In this document: positions 4,381 to 53,258 of the stretch, piece by piece
How positions within the stretch are numbered: the stretch's first letter is position 1
How the letters are laid out: each line of letters starts with the position of its first letter
Assembly: GCA_905236865.1 (NCBI GenBank)
Contig: CAJOQX010000173.1
Location: 1 to 53,337 of the forward strand
DNA: 53,337 nucleotides
Source: Candidatus Rifleibacteriota bacterium
GTDB taxonomy: Bacteria; Muiribacteriota; Ozemobacteria; Ozemobacterales; Ozemobacteraceae
Direction of reading: 5' to 3'
Notes under the pieces: model-generated
What the model was told of the DNA's origin: nothing
Database searches by the model: none
The model's input: the letters and a program-made list of their open reading frames with translations, nothing else
Position numbers and translations under genes: made by a program

Positions 4381-4518
4381 TATTTATTTATGTATTTATA
4401 AGGTTATATATAGGGAAAGAGCCTATAAAAAACAAATACTGTCAATCATGATGTCTATTAGAACAAGATTTACCTATCTGTAGCTTTTGAAAAAAGGTAC
4501 ATCTTTAAAAGAAAAAAG

Positions 4519-4547
4519 TTGACAAGTTGTGTACACTCGGTTAATCT
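4519..4547 (+). promoter_or_regulatory. sigma70-type promoter for the 4602 gene (TTGACA-17 nt-TAATCT)
   Basis: Perfect -35 TTGACA at 4519..4524, 17-nt spacer, -10 TAATCT at 4542..4547. The spacer contains the TTGTGTACA motif. Confidence 0.45.
4527..4535 (+). promoter_or_regulatory. copy 1 of recurrent 9-mer TTGTGTACA, inside the promoter spacer of the 4602 gene
   Basis: Exact TTGTGTACA read at 4527..4535, between the -35 and -10 hexamers. Confidence 0.4.
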
Positions 4548-4601: not shown

Positions 4602-5243
4602 GTGGGAAGAAAAAGAACCTGTGAATTGCCTTTCTGTCATGGTATTGTAGAGGGCACGAAAAACAAAAGAAGATGTGATAACGACAAAAATATACATTTA
4701 CATGAAATTATTTCTAAGAGCGTGAGACGTATTATGCGTTATCTTGAAAATCATGGCGAAGTAACGGCTAATGATGTTAATCATGATTTATTCAAGGGTG
4801 AACTTGATAAAAATCAAAAAGGTTCTATGTATCGTTTATTTCAAGCTATGGTACGTGAAAACTATTTGCTTGAATGTGGGAAAAAAGATGGTTTAAAGAT
4901 TTACCGATGTTCGAAAAGCAAATTTTTTGATAAAGTAGCAGAAAACGAAGCTGCTAAAACTGACAATATCGAAGAAAAAGAATTAAATAATGAAAAAGAA
5001 GAAATAGAAGAACAGGTTCAACCAGCTCCAGTTATTATTGAAAGACGGTTGAGCCCAGAGGAAATATTATTAGGTAAACTGAAAGAATTTGTCTATATGA
5101 AGAGCGGACAATGGAATCATGAAGATTGGATTTGGTTATTAAACCGTCCAGACATAAAAGAATTTGGTATGTCTGAGAACGATATTGGTCGTTTATTGGA
5201 AGAAGAAAAAGCGCGTTATTGGTTACAAAGAAATAATTACTGA
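4602..5243 (+). CDS. hypothetical protein: basic Cys/His-containing N-terminus, winged-helix-like segment, acidic linker, Trp-rich C-terminal domain (putative DNA-binding)
   Basis: GTG start at 4602 with GAGGT 8 nt upstream. N-terminus is MGRKRTCELPFCHGIVEGTKNKRRCDNDKNIH. The segment VRRIMRYLENHGEVTANDVNHDL...MYRLFQAMVRENYLLECGKKDGLKIYR looks like a winged helix. The gene is followed by an intrinsic terminator. The function call is inference only. Confidence 0.6.
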   Translation: MGRKRTCELPFCHGIVEGTKNKRRCDNDKNIHLHEIISKSVRRIMRYLENHGEVTANDVNHDLFKGELDKNQKGSMYRLFQAMVRENYLLECGKKDGLKIYRCSKSKFFDKVAENEAAKTDNIEEKELNNEKEEIEEQVQPAPVIIERRLSPEEILLGKLKEFVYMKSGQWNHEDWIWLLNRPDIKEFGMSENDIGRLLEEEKARYWLQRNNY

Positions 5244-6284: not shown

Positions 6285-6293
6285 TGTACACAA
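6285..6293 (-). promoter_or_regulatory. copy 2 of recurrent 9-mer TTGTGTACA (minus-strand orientation), 9 nt upstream of the ffh -35 hexamer
   Basis: Plus strand reads tgtacacaa at 6285..6293, the reverse complement of TTGTGTACA. Confidence 0.35.
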
Positions 6294-6301
6294 TATTATG
6301 C

Positions 6302-6330
6302 TTGACTATTAGGTAAATATAGTTTAATAT
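6302..6330 (+). promoter_or_regulatory. sigma70-type promoter for the ffh-rpsP-...-rplS operon (TTGACT-17 nt-TAATAT)
   Basis: -35 TTGACT at 6302..6307, 17-nt spacer, -10 TAATAT at 6325..6330, about 35 nt upstream of the ffh ATG. Confidence 0.5.
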
Positions 6331-42295: not shown

Positions 42296-42304
42296 TTGTG
42301 TACA
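42296..42304 (+). promoter_or_regulatory. copy 3 of recurrent 9-mer TTGTGTACA, in the divergent region between the PP2C operon and the LysM-M23 gene
   Basis: Exact TTGTGTACA at 42296..42304, 75 nt upstream of the ATG at 42380 and 117 nt upstream of the ATG at 42179. Confidence 0.35.
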
Positions 42305-42345
42305 TTTTTTATAAAAAAAATAAACTTTTTGAATAAATTTAAGTA

Positions 42346-42354
42346 TGATATAAT
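42346..42354 (+). promoter_or_regulatory. extended -10 element (TGaTATAAT) upstream of the LysM-M23 gene
   Basis: tgatataat at 42346..42354, 25 nt upstream of the ATG. There is no good -35, which is tolerated by extended -10 promoters. Confidence 0.4.
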
Positions 42355-47500: not shown

Positions 47501-50223
47501 CTGCCATCATTTTCTTTTATATTGATAACAAGAGCACCAATAGTGGAAAAAGATACTTTTTCAAAGGGTTTGACTTTTACACCGTCTATTTTAATGCTAC
47601 TGTCCATTGTTAAATCATAATCTCTATTTATGTCTAGTTTGCCAAGGAAACTGATTTTGAGGGTATTATCGTTCCATTCTTTCTTTATTCGTTCGTCCTC
47701 TATGCCTGAAAGGTGTATTGAGTTGGCTATAATATTTCTGTCCTCTTTGCCGAAAGTAAAACTTGGTTTTACATAGAAAGCAGGATTGAGTCTGTATATA
47801 TTTTCTGCTTCGTTGAAAATACAGGATGGATCTGTTGTGACATTGAAAGTCACAGCTCCCTTAGTGGTGAACTCAAAACTGTCGAAAGCTTTTATCAACG
47901 CTTCGTCTACTCCTGTGTCAGATGACATTTTAACATTATAAGTTTCGCCGTCTTTCAAGGTTTCTTTGAAACTCAGTGTGAAACTGTCGCTTGCAGTCCA
48001 GTTTACCACAAGCTGACTACTGTCAACTCCTGTCACTGAAACAGATTTGGCAATTTTCTCCCTGTCAGACTCCTTGAAAGAATAACTGGTCTTTACTGTG
48101 AAAGTAGGGTTAAGCTTGTAAAGACCTCTCTCTTTGTCTATGACATTGCCATGATTGGAATCGAGGGTTACGTCTATCTCGTCCATGGTTGTAAAGGAGA
48201 AATCTTTAAAAACAGAGATATCCACACCTTCTATTCCTGTGTCACTAGCCATGGTGACAGTATATTTTGTTGTCGCATCAAGTTTGTTTTTGAAGCTTAT
48301 ATTCAAAACATCGTTTTCCCAGGTTTTTGTCAGCGACGAGCTTGCTATATTTGAAACGGAAACGGCATCTGCAATCTTTTTCTTGTCGTTGTCGCTGAAA
48401 GAGAAACTGGGGGTTACAGAGAACGTGGGATTTATTCTAAAAAGTTTGTCTGATTCGTCAAAAATATTGCTTTCTGGAGAGTTCAGCTCCACCTTTATAC
48501 CGTCCATGGTAGTGAAATCCAGATCCTCGAAACATTTGATGCTGTAGCCTTCCACATCTGACGGCTCTTTCATGGACAGAACGTAGTTCGTGGAACTGTC
48601 CAGACCACCTATAATACCAACGGAAAGTCGAGAGTTATCCCATTTTTTTTCAAGCCTATTGTTGGAAACCGTGGAAATGGAAATGGAGTCGGCTATTTTC
48701 TTTTTATCCTCGTCATCCAGCATATAGCCTAAGTCAATTGTGAATGCGGGATCTATTCGGTAAAGACCATTTTGACTGTCGAAGATATTCTTATCGGCAT
48801 CAGACAAAGTAATAGTCACATCGCCCATTGTAGTAAATTTATGGTCATCAAAACCGATGACGGTGATGTTTTCAATCCCTGTGTCTGATGCCATCGTGAC
48901 AATATAAGTGGTGTCGGTCGCAAGATAGCTGTCGAAGCTTAGTGTAAGCTCATCTTCACTCCATATTTTGGCGAGCTTCTGCCCTGAAAGGTTGCTGACA
49001 GAGATTGAATTTGCTATCTTGTCGCGGTCTGCTTTGTCGAATTTGTGGCTGGAAGTCACGAAGAATCGTGGGTTGAGCTTTAAGATATTCCCATTCTCAT
49101 CGGCAAAGCTGGATTTTTCAGGAGCTATACTGAAAAGCACATCGCTATAGGAGTCGAATGTCACATACTGTGAATAGACAAGAGGCTGCGAAAGACCGCT
49201 TTCTTTTCGGCTGAAAAACTCTATCAGGAATCTCTTCGGGAAATCCTCTTCCGCCATTCCTTTGATATTTAACGTGAAAGAGTATTCTGCCTCTGAATAT
49301 GTCTTGGCGAAGCTTATAAGATTCGTGATGTCAAACGAGTGGGAGTATCTGCCATCCTCTATGCAGCTGTCATTGAAGTTGGACTGTCTAACCAGCTTCC
49401 CGTTCACTTTCACCCTGTCAGGTATTTCGCTGTTGTTACGGTATGTGAGTCTGACAACCAGATCTGAATCGTCGAATGATTCCATGTTGACCCCTTTCAG
49501 AACGCTTTTTACAAAAAGGTCGTCGCAATACTGGCTTTTAGAATTCATCAGCACAGCCGAGGTTGAGGTCGCCACAATTCCATCTATCACCGTTTCGGGT
49601 TTCAAGGCGTCAGGCTTCATTATCGCCAGGGCTAACTGCACCCCTGCACGATAAAGCTCGAACTTGCATTCTTTTGGGGCTGGCTGTTCAGCCGCTCTGG
49701 ATGGAACCGTATTCGCTATCTTTGTTATCTGGTCAGTGACTCTTGAAAAACGCCACGGCTCACTTTCGGAAGTTTTCACCGCCACATAGCAGAGCCCAGT
49801 GTCGCTGACAGGATTTGGAATGGTAACTGTGAAAGGTTTTTCCAGGGTTGTCACCTGGACATCTTCGATGAGAGGGTTATCTGACTTGTAGACGGCTTTC
49901 ACTGTGTATACATAGATATAGTCGGAGGGAAGCCCTATTTTTTCATCGCCTGTATTTATACGCTTCTCTTCTAAGACGGTGACAACGACGCCAGAACGCA
50001 TGGTCGCGTCATTGTTGGTCTCTATTTTAGCCCCTGACGGAAAAGTTATCGTGGGCATTCTGCCGTCCTCGTTTACCACGGCTTCCCTGTAAAATACTTC
50101 TAGATTGGCAGAAGGAATGTTGCCAAGGTCATTCATGCCGTCACTGCCTTTGCGGTTGCAACAGCCGTATATGAAAATCATAATAAGAATTATGATTGTT
50201 ATTGTAGAAAGATATTTTTTCAT
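44533..50223 (-). CDS. giant (1,896 aa) surface/lipoprotein-like adhesin: signal peptide, ~340-aa N-terminal region, 11 Ig-like repeats, InlB-type B-repeats, C-terminal C-type lectin domain
   Basis: Single uninterrupted ORF. N-terminus MKKYLSTITIIILIMIFIYGCC is a signal sequence with a possible lipobox Cys. See the repeat and lectin sub-features. A candidate promoter lies upstream and a terminator downstream. Confidence 0.9.
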   Translation of the reverse strand: MKKYLSTITIIILIMIFIYGCCNRKGSDGMNDLGNIPSANLEVFYREAVVNEDGRMPTITFPSGAKIETNNDATMRSGVVVTVLEEKRINTGDEKIGLPSDYIYVYTVKAVYKSDNPLIEDVQVTTLEKPFTVTIPNPVSDTGLCYVAVKTSESEPWRFSRVTDQITKIANTVPSRAAEQPAPKECKFELYRAGVQLALAIMKPDALKPETVIDGIVATSTSAVLMNSKSQYCDDLFVKSVLKGVNMESFDDSDLVVRLTYRNNSEIPDRVKVNGKLVRQSNFNDSCIEDGRYSHSFDITNLISFAKTYSEAEYSFTLNIKGMAEEDFPKRFLIEFFSRKESGLSQPLVYSQYVTFDSYSDVLFSIAPEKSSFADENGNILKLNPRFFVTSSHKFDKADRDKIANSISVSNLSGQKLAKIWSEDELTLSFDSYLATDTTYIVTMASDTGIENITVIGFDDHKFTTMGDVTITLSDADKNIFDSQNGLYRIDPAFTIDLGYMLDDEDKKKIADSISISTVSNNRLEKKWDNSRLSVGIIGGLDSSTNYVLSMKEPSDVEGYSIKCFEDLDFTTMDGIKVELNSPESNIFDESDKLFRINPTFSVTPSFSFSDNDKKKIADAVSVSNIASSSLTKTWENDVLNISFKNKLDATTKYTVTMASDTGIEGVDISVFKDFSFTTMDEIDVTLDSNHGNVIDKERGLYKLNPTFTVKTSYSFKESDREKIAKSVSVTGVDSSQLVVNWTASDSFTLSFKETLKDGETYNVKMSSDTGVDEALIKAFDSFEFTTKGAVTFNVTTDPSCIFNEAENIYRLNPAFYVKPSFTFGKEDRNIIANSIHLSGIEDERIKKEWNDNTLKISFLGKLDINRDYDLTMDSSIKIDGVKVKPFEKVSFSTIGALVINIKENDGSVFDDGNGLYRLNPTFTISPNLPLTEKDKDNIVTSISVSGVTKSETTMEWRKDDEYEKLIIGFINYLEPGHGYSINMANSIDVSGMVVVGFGRMSFNTMDRVTATYEIEEGSIFDDGKGFYRLDPVFVVTPSVTFNDSDKELFANAVSIKGVAHDAINRDWVGNSLRITQKDYLTPKTSFSLSLSADTGISGVVVKPFRDFPFNTMDEVVVTLASTTGSVFDEPEQFYRLNPTFVVTPSVAFNTTDRALVEKAVNISGVDHDDLVMTWVGDSIRLAVNHYLNPNVDYTVSLNTTTGIRGIVAKPFADFTFRTMRTINIALASDTGRVFDEPDQLYRLNPSFTINPDYVFNDTDKAVILNALSVDGVSESKVIKAWDGNIIRLSFDGYLEPDTSYVIKLGDLTAIEAISFNKFANHGIKTMPVITFSIDHNGNDLFDASPSHTRYRLNTSFTATSTYAFTRTSDWQQIFDAISVSVIDSGKVTKNHGTNNVAIGFTEYLTQGTTYTVSMTDPGMDGILVTPFPARTITTMERVTLTLATNAGSYFNESEGLYMLDPTFTVTSTYDFNTSDKAIISSCLLVSDLAESGMSKTWSGTSLGLSFVGELDVGRTYTISMADLSAIEAIDIEVFPQKVFNTVENNTLTVRHYQMNIDNNNYTLYETENLSRRVKSDQAPSVKTYTGFTSPTATTINISYNSTNEINYYYSRNSYTLTVNKGTGISTVSGDGTYKFGKSVTVTATCLAGYQTPAWSGYTTASTFTMPAINTTMTANASLIKYTITYNYDGGSATNVDNYYVTTNTFTLVNPTKSGFTFVGWTGSNGTKAQTSVSITKGSTENKSYKANWLNNSVVGGSVVTYGGCRLVVVNSAMSWTDARNYAIAMGGELVMIKSADMQNKVMSYLAGNANSDFWIGLNDAASEGTWRYNDGTLAGTGNGSSGGFSTASGMYTNWNSGEPNNSSGENYAEFYKGTGLWNDLNGSQALPFVVQFGTP
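44536..44940 (-). other. C-terminal C-type lectin-like domain of the giant protein with EPN and WND motifs
   Basis: CRLVVVNSAMSWTDARNYAIAMGGELVMIKSADMQNKVMSYL...FWIGLNDAASEGTWRYNDG...NWNSGEPNNSSGENYAEF...GLWNDL. EPN is encoded at 44649..44641 (GAA CCA AAT) and WND at 44592..44584 (TGG AAT GAT), both verified on the DNA. Confidence 0.75.
44977..45594 (-). other. InlB B-repeat / Listeria-Bacteroides (Flg_new)-type repeats within the giant protein (aa ~1544-1749)
   Basis: TLTVRHYQMNIDNNNYTLYETENL...VKTYTGFTSP...INYYYSRNSYTLTV, then YTLTVNKGTGISTVSG..., then YTITYNYDGGSATNVDNYYVTTNTFTLVNPTKSGFTFVGWTG...KSYKANW. The Y-T-(I/L/V)-T-(F/Y/V) ... G(Y/F)TFxGW pattern is characteristic. Confidence 0.7.
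45595..49143 (-). repeat. 11 tandem, divergent ~107-aa repeats (aa 361-1543), each ending in F-(T/N/S)-T-(M/K/I/V); pattern resembles SbsA/Big_5-type bacterial Ig-like domains
   Basis: Recurring pattern in the translation: (F/I)(D/N)xxxxx(Y/F)(R/K)LNP(T/A)F(T/V)(V/I)xPSxxFxxxD(K/R)xxIAxx(I/V)SVSG...W....L.(L/I)SF...L...T.Y.V.M..DTGI.G(V)....F.DF.FTTM. Repeat 1 ends at the ATG codon 48826..48828, checked on the DNA. The fold assignment is by pattern only. Confidence 0.75.
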
Positions 50224-50256: not shown

Positions 50257-50284
50257 ATTGTACACAAAATTCTTTTATTTGCAA
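50257..50284 (-). promoter_or_regulatory. candidate sigma70-type promoter for the giant gene (TTGCAA-16 nt-TACAAT on the minus strand)
   Basis: -35 TTGCAA at 50284..50279, 16-nt spacer, -10 TACAAT at 50262..50257, about 34 nt upstream of the ATG at 50223. It overlaps copy 4 of TTGTGTACA. Confidence 0.4.
50259..50267 (-). promoter_or_regulatory. copy 4 of recurrent 9-mer TTGTGTACA (minus strand), overlapping the -10 of the giant-gene promoter
   Basis: Plus strand reads tgtacacaa at 50259..50267, the reverse complement of TTGTGTACA. Confidence 0.4.
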
Positions 50285-50330: not shown

Positions 50331-53258
50331 TTATTGTTTCTTTTTTATTTGATAAATGAACGATATTGCGAGCATTATAACGGCAACACCTATTAACACA
50401 ATAATTCGCAATAGCGAGGTTAATTGCCAAATATCAAAGAGAAAAAGTTTTATTACAGAGAGACTGATTAATCCAATTCCAACTTTCAAAAGTTTGTCTA
50501 GCTTTTTGTTTGCCAAAAACATACACACAGCACCGCATATAGCCCAGGCAATAGTATAAGTAGCAGCTTCACTGACTTTTCCACAAAAATTGAAATTAAG
50601 ACTTTCGCCATTTGAAAAATAATTGGCTATTTCAATATTTACTAGGGCAAAAAGTAATATTCCACCTAGTGAATTTAATATTGTGGGGTATTTTTTTTGT
50701 GAATCTTTTCGCCAAAAATAAGCTGAAGCAAACATTGCTGCTGAACAGGGCAAATATGTATATAAATACCAGTTGAAAAATAAATTATTTTCTTTATGAT
50801 AGGTAATTATAAATGGATTGAGCAATAATCGAATTCCGACAATCCACATTAATATCGTTCCAAAATTTTGAAGTAAATTAATCGGTAATTTGTGCCATAA
50901 TAATATTAAACTAAAACCTTCTAGGGCATAAGCGATGGTTTTCCATTCGTTCGTAAAATTAAGAGCTATGCTCATTGTTAAAAAAGCAATTGGAACAGTT
51001 ATTAAAGTAGTAATTCGTAGTTTTTGTATGCCTTCGTCTAATTTGCTCCATTTAATAATTAAATAATCGTAAATTGCAAAGAAAGCAAAGAGTAAAAATG
51101 GTATATAACCTGATGTTTGTCTATATTTTATATCATCGTAAAAGATAGCAATAATTAATGACCCTACAAGCAAATTAAATACAGATACCGAAACCCAAGT
51201 TTCCTTGCTTTTTTCAAAAGTTTTTTGCCATACGAAAGGTATGCAAGCTATTAGGATATTCCATATTACAAGCCATATAAATATTTCTTCGCCTCTTTTA
51301 TCGTCAATTGCTTGGTTAGTCATAATGCATAAGGGAATTATGAGTGATAGAGTGTTTACTGAATAAATTACTCCGTTTTTTTGTTTAATGGAAAAAAAGA
51401 TATACAAGATTTGATAGATTAAAGCAAAAGCAAGTATTGAGTGAAGTTTTTCTATCCCTATTAAAGATGTTAAGGTAACGCAGATTGCTGTAAATATTAT
51501 CGAAGTTAGTTGTGGATAAAGCTTTTCTCTGATTCCACTTAGCGTTCCAAAAAATAATGTAAAAAGCGTATTTAAACCTATTAAATACCATTGATTTTTA
51601 AAAGGAACTATAAAACCGAAACATAAAAATGCTAATATTATTGTGTTAGATAATAATAAATCGCTTTTTTTTATGAAAGCTATTATTCCAAAGAATAATG
51701 TGAAGAAAGTTGCAAAACCTGCAAGATAAGGCAGATGAGTTGTATCAAGTATAGCATTAGGTTGACAGAAATAAAGGGCTATAAAACCTATTCCTGTGAG
51801 AAACATTGAGGCTATTTGCCAGTAAATGTTTTGGTTTTTAATAGATATAACTCCAAAGAATAGTGAAATAAATATAATATATATAAAAATGGCTATTAAA
51901 GATTGAGTTGTAGCAATTAGAACGAAGCCTAATAATGTAAAAAAGATACTGCAAATAAAGGTTTCATTGTCATTTTTCCAAAAAGCTAATAAAGCGAATA
52001 ATATAGCAAAAAAACCAGCATAAGTGATTAGATAGGGTAATTTTTCCAAACTACTTTCTAAACTAAATATGAAATTGTGAAATCCTAGAATTATCAAAGC
52101 AATTGTTGTAAAGGCAAAAACTGCTTTCATTAACCATTTCTGGTCTTTGTAAATGTAAACAACCGTATAAAATATCGATAAAAATGCAGGGAATATTGCT
52201 AATTGGAGTAAATTGCTATTTTTTATTACAGATAAGAAGCAGAGGAATGTAAAAGCAAGCCCTGTAAATAGCTGGTTCTGCCAGTTACGTTTTATAGCGG
52301 CGGCTACTGCGGCAACGTTAATAATACCTATATATGCTAATAAAAACCAAATCTGTGGTGTCTCTGTATGGAATAAAAAAGGAGTTAGAAAACCAATAAT
52401 TTGAGCTAGAACGCCTATGTATTGTGCATTTTTCCATACTGCTGTTGCGAAAGAAGCTAATGCTATAATGCTTAGAAGTATGAAAGTTACTGTTGGGGAA
52501 GTCATTTGATAAAAATAATAGGCTGCGAACCAGACCGAATAGCATGTACATAAGCCACAGGCACATAAAGTGTCCGAAGTAGTTTTTACATTTGGTTTAC
52601 GTAAAAGAGCACCTGTAGTCCACAATGCTATACCTGCTATAGTGCCTATTGCCACTCTTAAAGTTGCAGAAATTAGTTCTTTTTCTAATGCATATTTTAT
52701 TAGGAAAATTACTCCTAATAATAAGATGAAACCACCTATCCAAGAGAAAAGTTGAACGAAAGAAATAGGTTCTTTAGGCTTTTGTTGTGCTAAATGTTCT
52801 TTGTCGGATTGTTGTAAATCTTTTATTTGTTGCTGTTCTATACTTCCTTTTATATCTTCTTGATTGGTAGGAACTTCATTATTAATAGCTTCGCTTTGAG
52901 GGGATTGAATATCGTTAAATGATGACTGAACTGTTGTATTATTTGTCTCAATTTTTTGTTGAACTTCAATTTGCTTTTTAAGCTTCTGTTGAATTTCTTC
53001 CCCTGTTTTTGATTCAATATATTGAGAAATATCATTTGTTGAAGTATGTTTTTCTATATTTATTTCTGGAACAGATTCTGTAGTTGATTTTTCAGGTCTG
53101 TGTTTTAGTTTATATTCTATTGATTCGATAAGAGTTTTGTAATAATCAATCTCTTTTTTTAGTTCTTTTTTTGTTTCTTCTAAATCAAAAATAATTTTGT
53201 TTTGTCTATCTTGTAAGAAAACCAGCCACAGGAATACAATAAAAATAATTAGTAACAT
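50331..53258 (-). CDS. DUF2339-like large polytopic membrane protein with N-terminal TM segment plus coiled-coil/Gln-rich region
   Basis: 975 aa. N-terminus is LLIIFIVFLWLVFL followed by a heptad-like segment EETKKELKKEIDYYKTLIESIEYKL. The remainder is more than 20 hydrophobic segments rich in F/I/L/A, the architecture typical of DUF2339. Confidence 0.7.
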   Translation of the reverse strand: MLLIIFIVFLWLVFLQDRQNKIIFDLEETKKELKKEIDYYKTLIESIEYKLKHRPEKSTTESVPEINIEKHTSTNDISQYIESKTGEEIQQKLKKQIEVQQKIETNNTTVQSSFNDIQSPQSEAINNEVPTNQEDIKGSIEQQQIKDLQQSDKEHLAQQKPKEPISFVQLFSWIGGFILLLGVIFLIKYALEKELISATLRVAIGTIAGIALWTTGALLRKPNVKTTSDTLCACGLCTCYSVWFAAYYFYQMTSPTVTFILLSIIALASFATAVWKNAQYIGVLAQIIGFLTPFLFHTETPQIWFLLAYIGIINVAAVAAAIKRNWQNQLFTGLAFTFLCFLSVIKNSNLLQLAIFPAFLSIFYTVVYIYKDQKWLMKAVFAFTTIALIILGFHNFIFSLESSLEKLPYLITYAGFFAILFALLAFWKNDNETFICSIFFTLLGFVLIATTQSLIAIFIYIIFISLFFGVISIKNQNIYWQIASMFLTGIGFIALYFCQPNAILDTTHLPYLAGFATFFTLFFGIIAFIKKSDLLLSNTIILAFLCFGFIVPFKNQWYLIGLNTLFTLFFGTLSGIREKLYPQLTSIIFTAICVTLTSLIGIEKLHSILAFALIYQILYIFFSIKQKNGVIYSVNTLSLIIPLCIMTNQAIDDKRGEEIFIWLVIWNILIACIPFVWQKTFEKSKETWVSVSVFNLLVGSLIIAIFYDDIKYRQTSGYIPFLLFAFFAIYDYLIIKWSKLDEGIQKLRITTLITVPIAFLTMSIALNFTNEWKTIAYALEGFSLILLWHKLPINLLQNFGTILMWIVGIRLLLNPFIITYHKENNLFFNWYLYTYLPCSAAMFASAYFWRKDSQKKYPTILNSLGGILLFALVNIEIANYFSNGESLNFNFCGKVSEAATYTIAWAICGAVCMFLANKKLDKLLKVGIGLISLSVIKLFLFDIWQLTSLLRIIVLIGVAVIMLAISFIYQIKKKQ

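Follow-up and report, generated by a model that had tools for sequence, protein, structure and literature searches.

The window analysed here is a 53,337-nucleotide stretch, contig C173 of a Riflebacteria genome (G000), and four of the gaps between its genes carry an exact copy of the 9-mer TTGTGTACA, whose core is the palindrome TGTACA. An earlier note on this DNA had reported these copies, and an exhaustive search of both strands of the window returned the same four sites and no others. All four fall outside every ORF of at least 80 amino acids, in agreement with the note's placement of them in intergenic DNA.

Site 1 (TTGTGTACAC; 4527..4535, + strand) lies in front of the 4602 gene (4602..5243, + strand), which encodes a 213-amino-acid protein that the earlier note had put forward as the candidate regulator. 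As read from the sequence, the promoter of this gene consists of a TTGACA -35 hexamer (4519-4524) and a TAATCT -10 hexamer (4542-4547), and the box does sit within the 17-nt spacer, as had been claimed. A degenerate box, GGTACAT, is found by alignment at 4496..4502 (+ strand), ~17 nt upstream of the -35, where relatives have (G)TGTACAC. Site 2 (6285..6293, - strand) had been correctly placed upstream of the ffh promoter TTGACT-17-TAATAT (-35 at 6302-6307; -10 at 6325-6330), except that it ends 8 rather than 9 nt from the -35 hexamer; its centre falls at about -48.

Site 3 (42296..42304, + strand) occupies the gap between divergent genes for a GAF-PP2C protein and a LysM-M23 peptidase, the latter with Pfam matches to both M23 and LysM, and is located ~45 nt upstream of an extended -10 element, TGATATAAT, at 42346-42354. 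A second short word, AAACTTTTT(G), is present at 42322-42331. At LysM-M23 genes and rpsL it reappears 7-19 nt beyond the TGTACA box on the downstream side, as seen in the window and in the upstream regions of relatives (loci L053, L063, L098, L112, L084, and L050), and it could be a second site or a part of the promoter.

Site 4 (50259..50267, - strand) is positioned 35 nt ahead of the ATG of a giant lipoprotein adhesin gene, whose predicted promoter is TTGCAA-16-TACAAT (50284-50257). The predicted -10, TACAAT (50262-50257), is overlapped by the box, which bears out another of the placements. The first ~100-125 nt of the adhesin gene, counted from the ATG (50100-50223), have two paralogous copies elsewhere in the genome, on contigs C353 and C255, with 74-81% identity; the upstream regions of both copies are unrelated and hold no TGTACA box. 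Two near-misses to TTGTGTACA had also been described, and both exist within the coding DNA of the giant gene, with their positions corrected to 44664 (TTGTATACA) and 49903 (TGTGTATACA) from about 44668 and 49905.

When the window was shuffled with dinucleotides preserved, 0.35 copies of TTGTGTACA were expected, close to the chance expectation of ~0.4 given earlier, and none of 100 shuffles reached four. The hexamer TGTACA is itself infrequent, with five occurrences observed versus 10.6 expected. Four of the five are the intergenic TTGTGTACA sites, each with its TTG flank, and the fifth, at 52545, is in coding DNA. One-mismatch variants of TTGTGTACA show no enrichment in the window (11 versus 13.2 expected). 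Taken by itself, the window count is weak and would fail a look-elsewhere correction, since 1,995 canonical 9-mers share a count of at least four, among which TTGTGTACA ranks at about 725 by Poisson P. The significance of the 9-mer comes from its exclusively intergenic placement and from the whole-genome test.

Enrichment between genes and occurrence in relatives

The genome (3.56 Mb in 440 contigs, 31.8% GC, 79% complete) was divided into coding and non-coding DNA by a greedy selection of the longest ORFs of at least 90 amino acids, a crude map that covers 89% of the genome and misclassifies a few sites. On this map, 26 of the 43 copies of TTGTGTACA fall in the 385 kb of non-coding DNA that make up 11% of the genome (P = 3e-13 for at least 26 of 43). 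Markov models of orders 1-3 predict 1.4-2.8 intergenic copies, and 5-23 copies in coding DNA, where 17 are observed. The enrichment depends on the core, in that single substitutions at positions 4-9 (TGTACA) remove it. Some change is tolerated at positions 1-3, where ATG (5 observed versus 1.6 expected), TAG (6 versus 1.8), and TTA (14 versus 5.1) remain in excess.

Beyond the 9-mer, no conserved columns were found within 45 nt on either side (mean flank information 0.14 bits), and a second conserved block, such as a -10, a -35, or a second half-site, was likewise not found in this range. A dispersed repeat of the MITE or REP kind was rejected as an identity for the motif on the ground that no conserved sequence extends beyond the core. 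There are 699 over-represented intergenic 9-mers in the genome; 682 belong to longer dispersed repeats and 17 stand alone. Among these 17, TTGTGTACA is by far the most enriched (9.4-fold), compared with 2-3-fold for AT-rich words and the extended -10 element TGATATAAT (3-fold).

Two further properties of this genome deserve description. Long dispersed repeats, belonging to several families, dominate the DNA between its genes, and core words of these repeats, such as GAGATGAGAG, CGTCATTGCGAG, GATTGCCACG, AAGGGGGATT, and GGGAGAAGG, have 60-170 copies each versus ~1-5 expected. The genome also displays extreme avoidance of palindromes, for example CGTACG (2 observed versus 62 expected), CATATG (31 versus 862), and ACCGGT (9 versus 161), and of tetramers such as CCGG, GCGC, and GATC (observed/expected ratios of 0.07, 0.16, and 0.38, respectively). 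Such avoidance suggests pressure from many restriction systems.

With regard to the core of the box, the observed/expected ratio of GTAC is 0.38 in coding DNA versus 0.68 in intergenic DNA. In contrast, avoidance of GATC, CATG, and GGCC is at least as strong between genes as within them. Because the avoidance of GTAC is far weaker intergenically, unlike that of the other three tetramers, the data point to selective retention of TGTACA/GTAC sites between genes.

All seven genomes of the genus contain the 9-mer, in 27-54 copies each. Copies in relatives were classified as intergenic or coding with the same kind of ORF map, covering all hits in G001, G003, and G006, and several in others; the genomes compared are mutually related, and their counts are therefore not independent. 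The intergenic share is 59-68% in these three congeners (23/36, 16/27, and 26/38, respectively). It is 50-58% in two further genera of the same family, namely g10 (G015, 7/12) and g5, a genus of 48-51% GC (G050, 8/16; G067, 8/14). Genus g13 shows little bias (G053, 2/9). For genera g4 and g7, the 8-mer TGTGTACA was scored, and it is intergenic in 6 of 21 cases in G009 (g4) and in 1 of 10 in G069 (g7). Two of the three genomes tested from other families are at background (G019, 1/15; G027, 2/20) and the third, G062, is ambiguous (5/15). Based on these intergenic fractions across the sampled genomes, the motif is in use in part of one family. Phylum-wide ratios of the motif to a control, made by reading the pattern backwards, were discarded because the control contains ACATGT, which is itself avoided (observed/expected 0.14); the intergenic fraction of sampled hits was used in their place.

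Conserved promoters and anatomy of the site

The box is kept at orthologous promoters. At ffh, AAAAGTGTACAC stands 8 nt upstream of TTGACT in all five other congeners aligned, such that the box is conserved in six of six genomes. Exact copies of TTGTGTACA precede orthologues or paralogues of the M23 gene in each of the four genomes analysed (six genes), and orthologous conservation is likewise seen at rpsT, infC, rpsL, and rpmF. The gap holding site 4, between the giant gene and a DUF2339 gene, could not be aligned in relatives.

Outside the window, the gap upstream of dnaA (contig C391 13828-14351; locus L280 3329-3851) keeps four GTAC-centred boxes in all six congeneric genomes aligned, and one of them overlaps the dnaA ATG. 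This gap is probably the replication origin or the dnaA promoter, as judged from its at least three canonical DnaA boxes (TTATCCAC/GTGGATAA), beside which the TGTACA boxes form separate conserved elements.

Annotation of target genes by Pfam yields a broad set. Replication and translation are represented by dnaA, dnaG, rnpA, rpsL, rpsT, rpmF, infC, and ffh. Targets of the cell envelope include the LysM-M23 proteins, four SH3_3 proteins (one EntFM-like), two glucosaminidases, MurJ, DAP dehydrogenase, a PrsA-like PpiC protein, and flagellin. Metabolic targets comprise PFOR, amylases, and peptidases of families C11, S51, and M20, and those of transport include nucleoside, alanine, and ATP/ADP carriers, phosphonate- and NMT1-type binding proteins, and FeoA. 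The set is tied to growth and extends over more than one pathway. At one locus of the congener G001 (L089), the gap that separates the divergent feoA and RidA-like genes holds two exact copies of the motif (2001 and 2191), spaced by 190 nt, and one of them directly follows a TTGACT -35 hexamer, which is the geometry of the site at 4527.

The 4602 gene merits separate treatment. Twelve genomes of the family share its core promoter, TTGACA-17-TAATCT. Where site 1 sits in the window, relatives have GTGCAC; the spacer of the other aligned congeners reads TTG(A/C)GTGCACTCG or, in G001, TGGCGTGCACTCG. Their box, (G)TGTACAC, is instead found ~17 nt upstream of the -35, as AGTGTACACT in G001 and G006 and as ATGTACAC in G004 and G005; in G002 it takes the form TGTGTACA and lies ~16 nt further upstream. 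In genus g5, the upstream box is CTGTACAG or ATGTACAT in four genomes and GGTACC in others, and in g10 it is CGTACATG. In the aligned upstream regions of g4, g7, and g13, no box is found in the gene's own promoter. The earlier note had proposed that the 4602 product represses its own gene through the spacer site. Since the box of the relatives lies upstream of the -35 and their spacer is without the motif, that geometry is peculiar to this genome, and the proposal is not supported as it was put.

As to its anatomy, the site has the palindrome TGTACA at its core, and the best version is TTGTGTACACAA (optimum TTGTGT|ACACAA), with halves that abut. The 9-mer has the same orientation as the downstream gene in 24 cases and the opposite orientation in 26. 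It is followed by C at 36% of sites versus a background of ~14%, and by CAA with 6-fold enrichment, and perfect 12-bp palindromes of the TTGTGTACACAA type number 2-6 per genome. At rpsT, G000 and G001 both have the centre of TGTACA 22 nt ahead of the -35, but with the TTG flank on opposite sides. The even split in orientation, the C/CAA extension, the perfect palindromes, and the switch of flank at rpsT together identify the unit, at the level of sequence, as a TGTACA-centred palindrome of which one strong half usually appears to suffice. Most sites have a single good half, and none of the intergenic sites in G000 is flanked by TTG at both ends.

A longer palindrome, TTGTGTACAGTACAC(AA), occurs at paralogous loci on two contigs of the genome, C61 (~1519) and C390 (~1470), upstream of ORFs of 105-107 amino acids. 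By analogy with the Rv3066 operator discussed below, it has the look of a distinct local operator, made of two halves, in which the half-site of the box is used again.

Positions of the box relative to promoters were taken from inspection by hand and from a simple sigma-70 weight matrix; as the promoter calls rely on consensus matches in AT-rich DNA, they are weak evidence. The approximate centres are -44 to -48 for infC and ffh, -57 both for rpsT and for the 4602 gene of relatives, -60 for the M23 gene, and -93 for rpsL. Elsewhere, namely at the 4602 gene of this genome, dnaA, the giant gene, and an ORF in G001, the box is located within the spacer, on the -10, or in the leader. Among high-scoring promoter predictions, positions are scattered from -151 to +39, with a loose cluster at -44 to -68, a picture too noisy to yield a firm rule. 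Scatter of this kind implies no single mechanism, and the positions would fit a regulator whose effect depends on where it is bound.

The nature of the box and of its putative regulator

The motif is selectively kept between genes, is conserved at orthologous promoters, and works in either orientation. The most probable explanation, in which we have reasonable though not strong confidence, is that TTGTGTACA is the operator of a putative global regulator, a dimer whose action would depend on where in the promoter it sits. The general claim of the earlier note, that the sites are operators shared for one regulator, is well supported by the genome-wide intergenic enrichment, the conservation at orthologous promoters (for example ffh, rpsT, the 4602 gene, the M23 genes, and dnaA), the independence of orientation, and the palindromic extension. 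A sequence-specific protein would bind the TGTACA-centred palindrome as a dimer, with TTGTGTACA as the strong half, and would act globally in the genus and at least two sister genera of the family; the names of homologues of the 4602 protein identify this family as Candidatus Ozemobacteraceae. Bound at about -45 to -60 (ffh, infC, rpsT, the M23 gene, and the 4602 gene in relatives) or at about -93 (rpsL), the protein may modulate or activate RNA polymerase from upstream. Bound within the core promoter or the leader, as at the 4602 gene of this genome, at the giant adhesin gene, and where a box covers the start codon of dnaA, it would be expected to repress. Less easily reconciled with a dimeric operator are the length of the palindrome, since 12 bp is short for a classical helix-turn-helix dimer, and the rarity of sites with two good halves noted above.

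Several known systems provide a basis for comparison. CtrA of Caulobacter, Spo0A of Bacillus (with its 0A boxes), and Fis of E. coli are global regulators with position-dependent effects that recognize short symmetric or nearly symmetric sites and act at the origin or at dnaA. As with these proteins, tens of sites occur per genome, in either orientation, both upstream of and inside promoters, and the targets appear to include dnaA or the probable origin, flagellin, cell-wall enzymes, and translation genes. The sites themselves differ, with TTAA-N7-TTAA, TGTCGAA, and the degenerate Fis site on the one hand and TTGTGTACA(CAA) on the other. By analogy, the nearest functional counterparts of the proposed regulator would thus be the global regulators acting at dnaA or the origin, namely CtrA, Spo0A, and Fis.

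TGTACA hexamers are also known from the operators of antitoxins of the YefM-YoeB, Axe-Txe, and Phd type, which are arranged in pairs at one autoregulated toxin-antitoxin promoter. In these systems a protein dimer recognizes a single TGTACA hexamer, as might be the case for the motif described here, but their hexamers are paired at one promoter whereas the boxes here are single and occur genome-wide. A YefM/Phd operator was rejected, with no second hexamer at a fixed spacing and with PF02604 not found in the genome (79% complete). Boxes for Fur, Zur, and PerR are AT-rich inverted repeats of 19 bp or of the 7-1-7 form, and go with a metal-related regulon. There is some likeness to Fur in the weak Pfam FUR match of the 4602 protein and in the relative that has two copies of the motif in the gap upstream of feoA. 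However, the motif, TTGTGTACA(CAA), is dissimilar to a Fur box, the targets (dnaA, ribosomal genes, ffh, and peptidoglycan hydrolases) are not related to metals, and the 4602 protein does not have the portion of the Fur profile beyond the winged helix, which leaves the full Fur architecture, a winged helix joined to a metal-binding dimerization domain, incomplete.

Other known sites were tried and set aside. A DnaA box of the TTATCCACA type is matched at six of nine positions, and the TTGTCCACA variant at seven of nine, and canonical boxes are present separately at dnaA. Sites of the CRP/FNR or Rex type (TGTGA-N6-TCACA and TTGTGAA-N4-TTCACAA) have spaced halves, whereas those of the box abut and no conserved second half is found 6-8 nt away. 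An AsnC-like gene downstream of a perfect palindrome in G006 was considered as a regulator, but Pfam suggests that it encodes a siroheme decarboxylase of the NirDL/Ahb type. A literature search with motif strings turned up no description of the motif, just the operator of Rv3066, a TetR-family protein, and eukaryotic or primer matches. The DNase I footprint of Rv3066 at the mmr promoter of M. tuberculosis, TTGTGTACATTTGTACACAAAGG, consists of two inverted copies of the same 9-mer (PMC3467072). That operator is a local, 20-bp, two-half element of a single efflux operon, whereas the box has no second half at a fixed distance, except at the TTGTGTACAGTACAC loci, and the resemblance is probably coincidental.

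Should the regulator exist, one candidate among others would be the product of the 4602 gene itself, controlling its own expression together with the regulon. The protein has a basic Cys/His region at its N-terminus (C-x4-C ... C ... H-x-H), followed by a winged helix, an acidic linker, and a conserved helical C-terminal domain that is Trp-rich; the N-terminal segment (GRKRTCELPFC ... C ... HLH) is invariant. Its Pfam FUR match scores 28 bits and is confined to the winged helix (residues 39-138), NCBIfam returned no hit, and a sequence search of the PDB gave no meaningful match, which led to its rejection as a true Fur. In a predicted structure with a pLDDT of 69, the fold of the winged helix is similar to those of PadR, ArsR, the N-terminal domain of Fur, and Zalpha; the likeness to Zalpha, together with the alternating pyrimidine-purine tract TGTGTACACA, is a curiosity and not evidence. 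A search for homologues gave 152, of which every named one is a hypothetical protein of Riflebacteria or Ozemobacteraceae, and full-length homologues within the family share 64-87% identity.

Several observations speak for this candidate, namely its DNA-binding fold, the TGTACA/GTAC-centred box ~17-19 nt upstream of its own -35 in g1, g5, and g10 (in the spacer here), and its restriction to the family (24 of 24 sampled family genomes versus 0 of 36 outside), in which alone a clear intergenic bias of the motif is likewise seen. Nevertheless, residues 70-85, the predicted recognition helix, hardly vary within the family, and yet G069 of genus g7 has the protein and no intergenic bias, G053 of g13 has it with little bias, and both genera are without a box in the gene's own promoter. 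Even congeners do not share the spacer geometry, dozens of other promoters also have the box, such that its presence at the gene's own promoter is not diagnostic, and many other family-restricted genes would co-distribute equally well. Binding of the motif by the 4602 protein is accordingly unproven and somewhat disfavoured, and we consider it unlikely that the operator belongs to this protein. About as doubtful is a more ambitious reading, in which the box would be the operator of a lineage-specific master regulator of the Ozemobacteraceae, possibly the Cys/His and winged-helix protein of the 4602 gene, that couples replication initiation, ribosome synthesis, and cell-wall remodelling by way of the boxes at dnaA and the probable origin, at ribosomal and translation genes, and at peptidoglycan hydrolase genes.

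A different kind of explanation would treat TGTACA or GTAC as the target of a methyltransferase, either orphan or part of a restriction system, with sites purged from genes but kept and read out in control regions. Precedents exist in Dam methylation of GATC at the origin and dnaA promoter of E. coli and in CcrM methylation of GANTC in Caulobacter. The core is palindromic, the contrast between coding and intergenic GTAC is accompanied by the extreme avoidance of many other palindromes that would reflect heavy restriction pressure, and the four conserved boxes cluster at the dnaA promoter or probable origin. The distribution of the motif (depletion in genes, cluster at dnaA) fits a signal of the Dam or CcrM type, but the dependence on a TTG flank does not, in that the enrichment requires a one-sided TTG outside the hexamer, for which a methyltransferase acting on the hexamer alone does not account. 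A reader protein would be needed in any case, so this explanation, which we regard as rather improbable, overlaps with that of a regulator and its operator.

A core-promoter element, in the form of a -35 or extended -10 variant for a housekeeping or alternative sigma factor, could be imagined from the match of TGTACA to TTGACA at four of six positions and from the plausible -10, TACAAT, that overlaps the motif at the giant gene. This reading is contradicted by the data on orientation (24 versus 26) and spacing. There is no partner hexamer at any fixed distance, and ffh, infC, rpsT, and rpsL each have a good -35/-10 pair that is distinct from the box and downstream of it, leaving the idea with very little probability. 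Scarcely credible, finally, is an origin in chance, base composition, or membership in a dispersed repeat. The window count is indeed unremarkable among 9-mers and the intergenic DNA is full of long repeats, but the Markov-corrected enrichment has a P of ~1e-13 to 1e-17, the flanks are unconserved, and six other family genomes, as well as orthologous sites, give the same result.

If TTGTGTACA is the operator of a global regulator, as we favour, the system is in kind an ordinary transcription-factor regulon. We know of no regulatory site that has been described for the Riflebacteria, an uncultured candidate phylum. Among the stand-alone intergenic words of the genome the motif is the most prominent; it marks a coherent and conserved set of targets, and it is probably the main regulatory word of the lineage. 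By linking dnaA and the probable origin with translation, peptidoglycan hydrolases, flagellin, and nutrient uptake, the regulon looks like one for the control of growth or the cell cycle. In practical terms, the motif aids the annotation of promoters in metagenome-assembled genomes of the lineage, and a 12-bp probe offers a handle for fishing out what may be its main growth regulator. Were a master regulator to lie behind the box, it would represent a new family of global regulators of growth or the cell cycle in a candidate phylum without known regulators.
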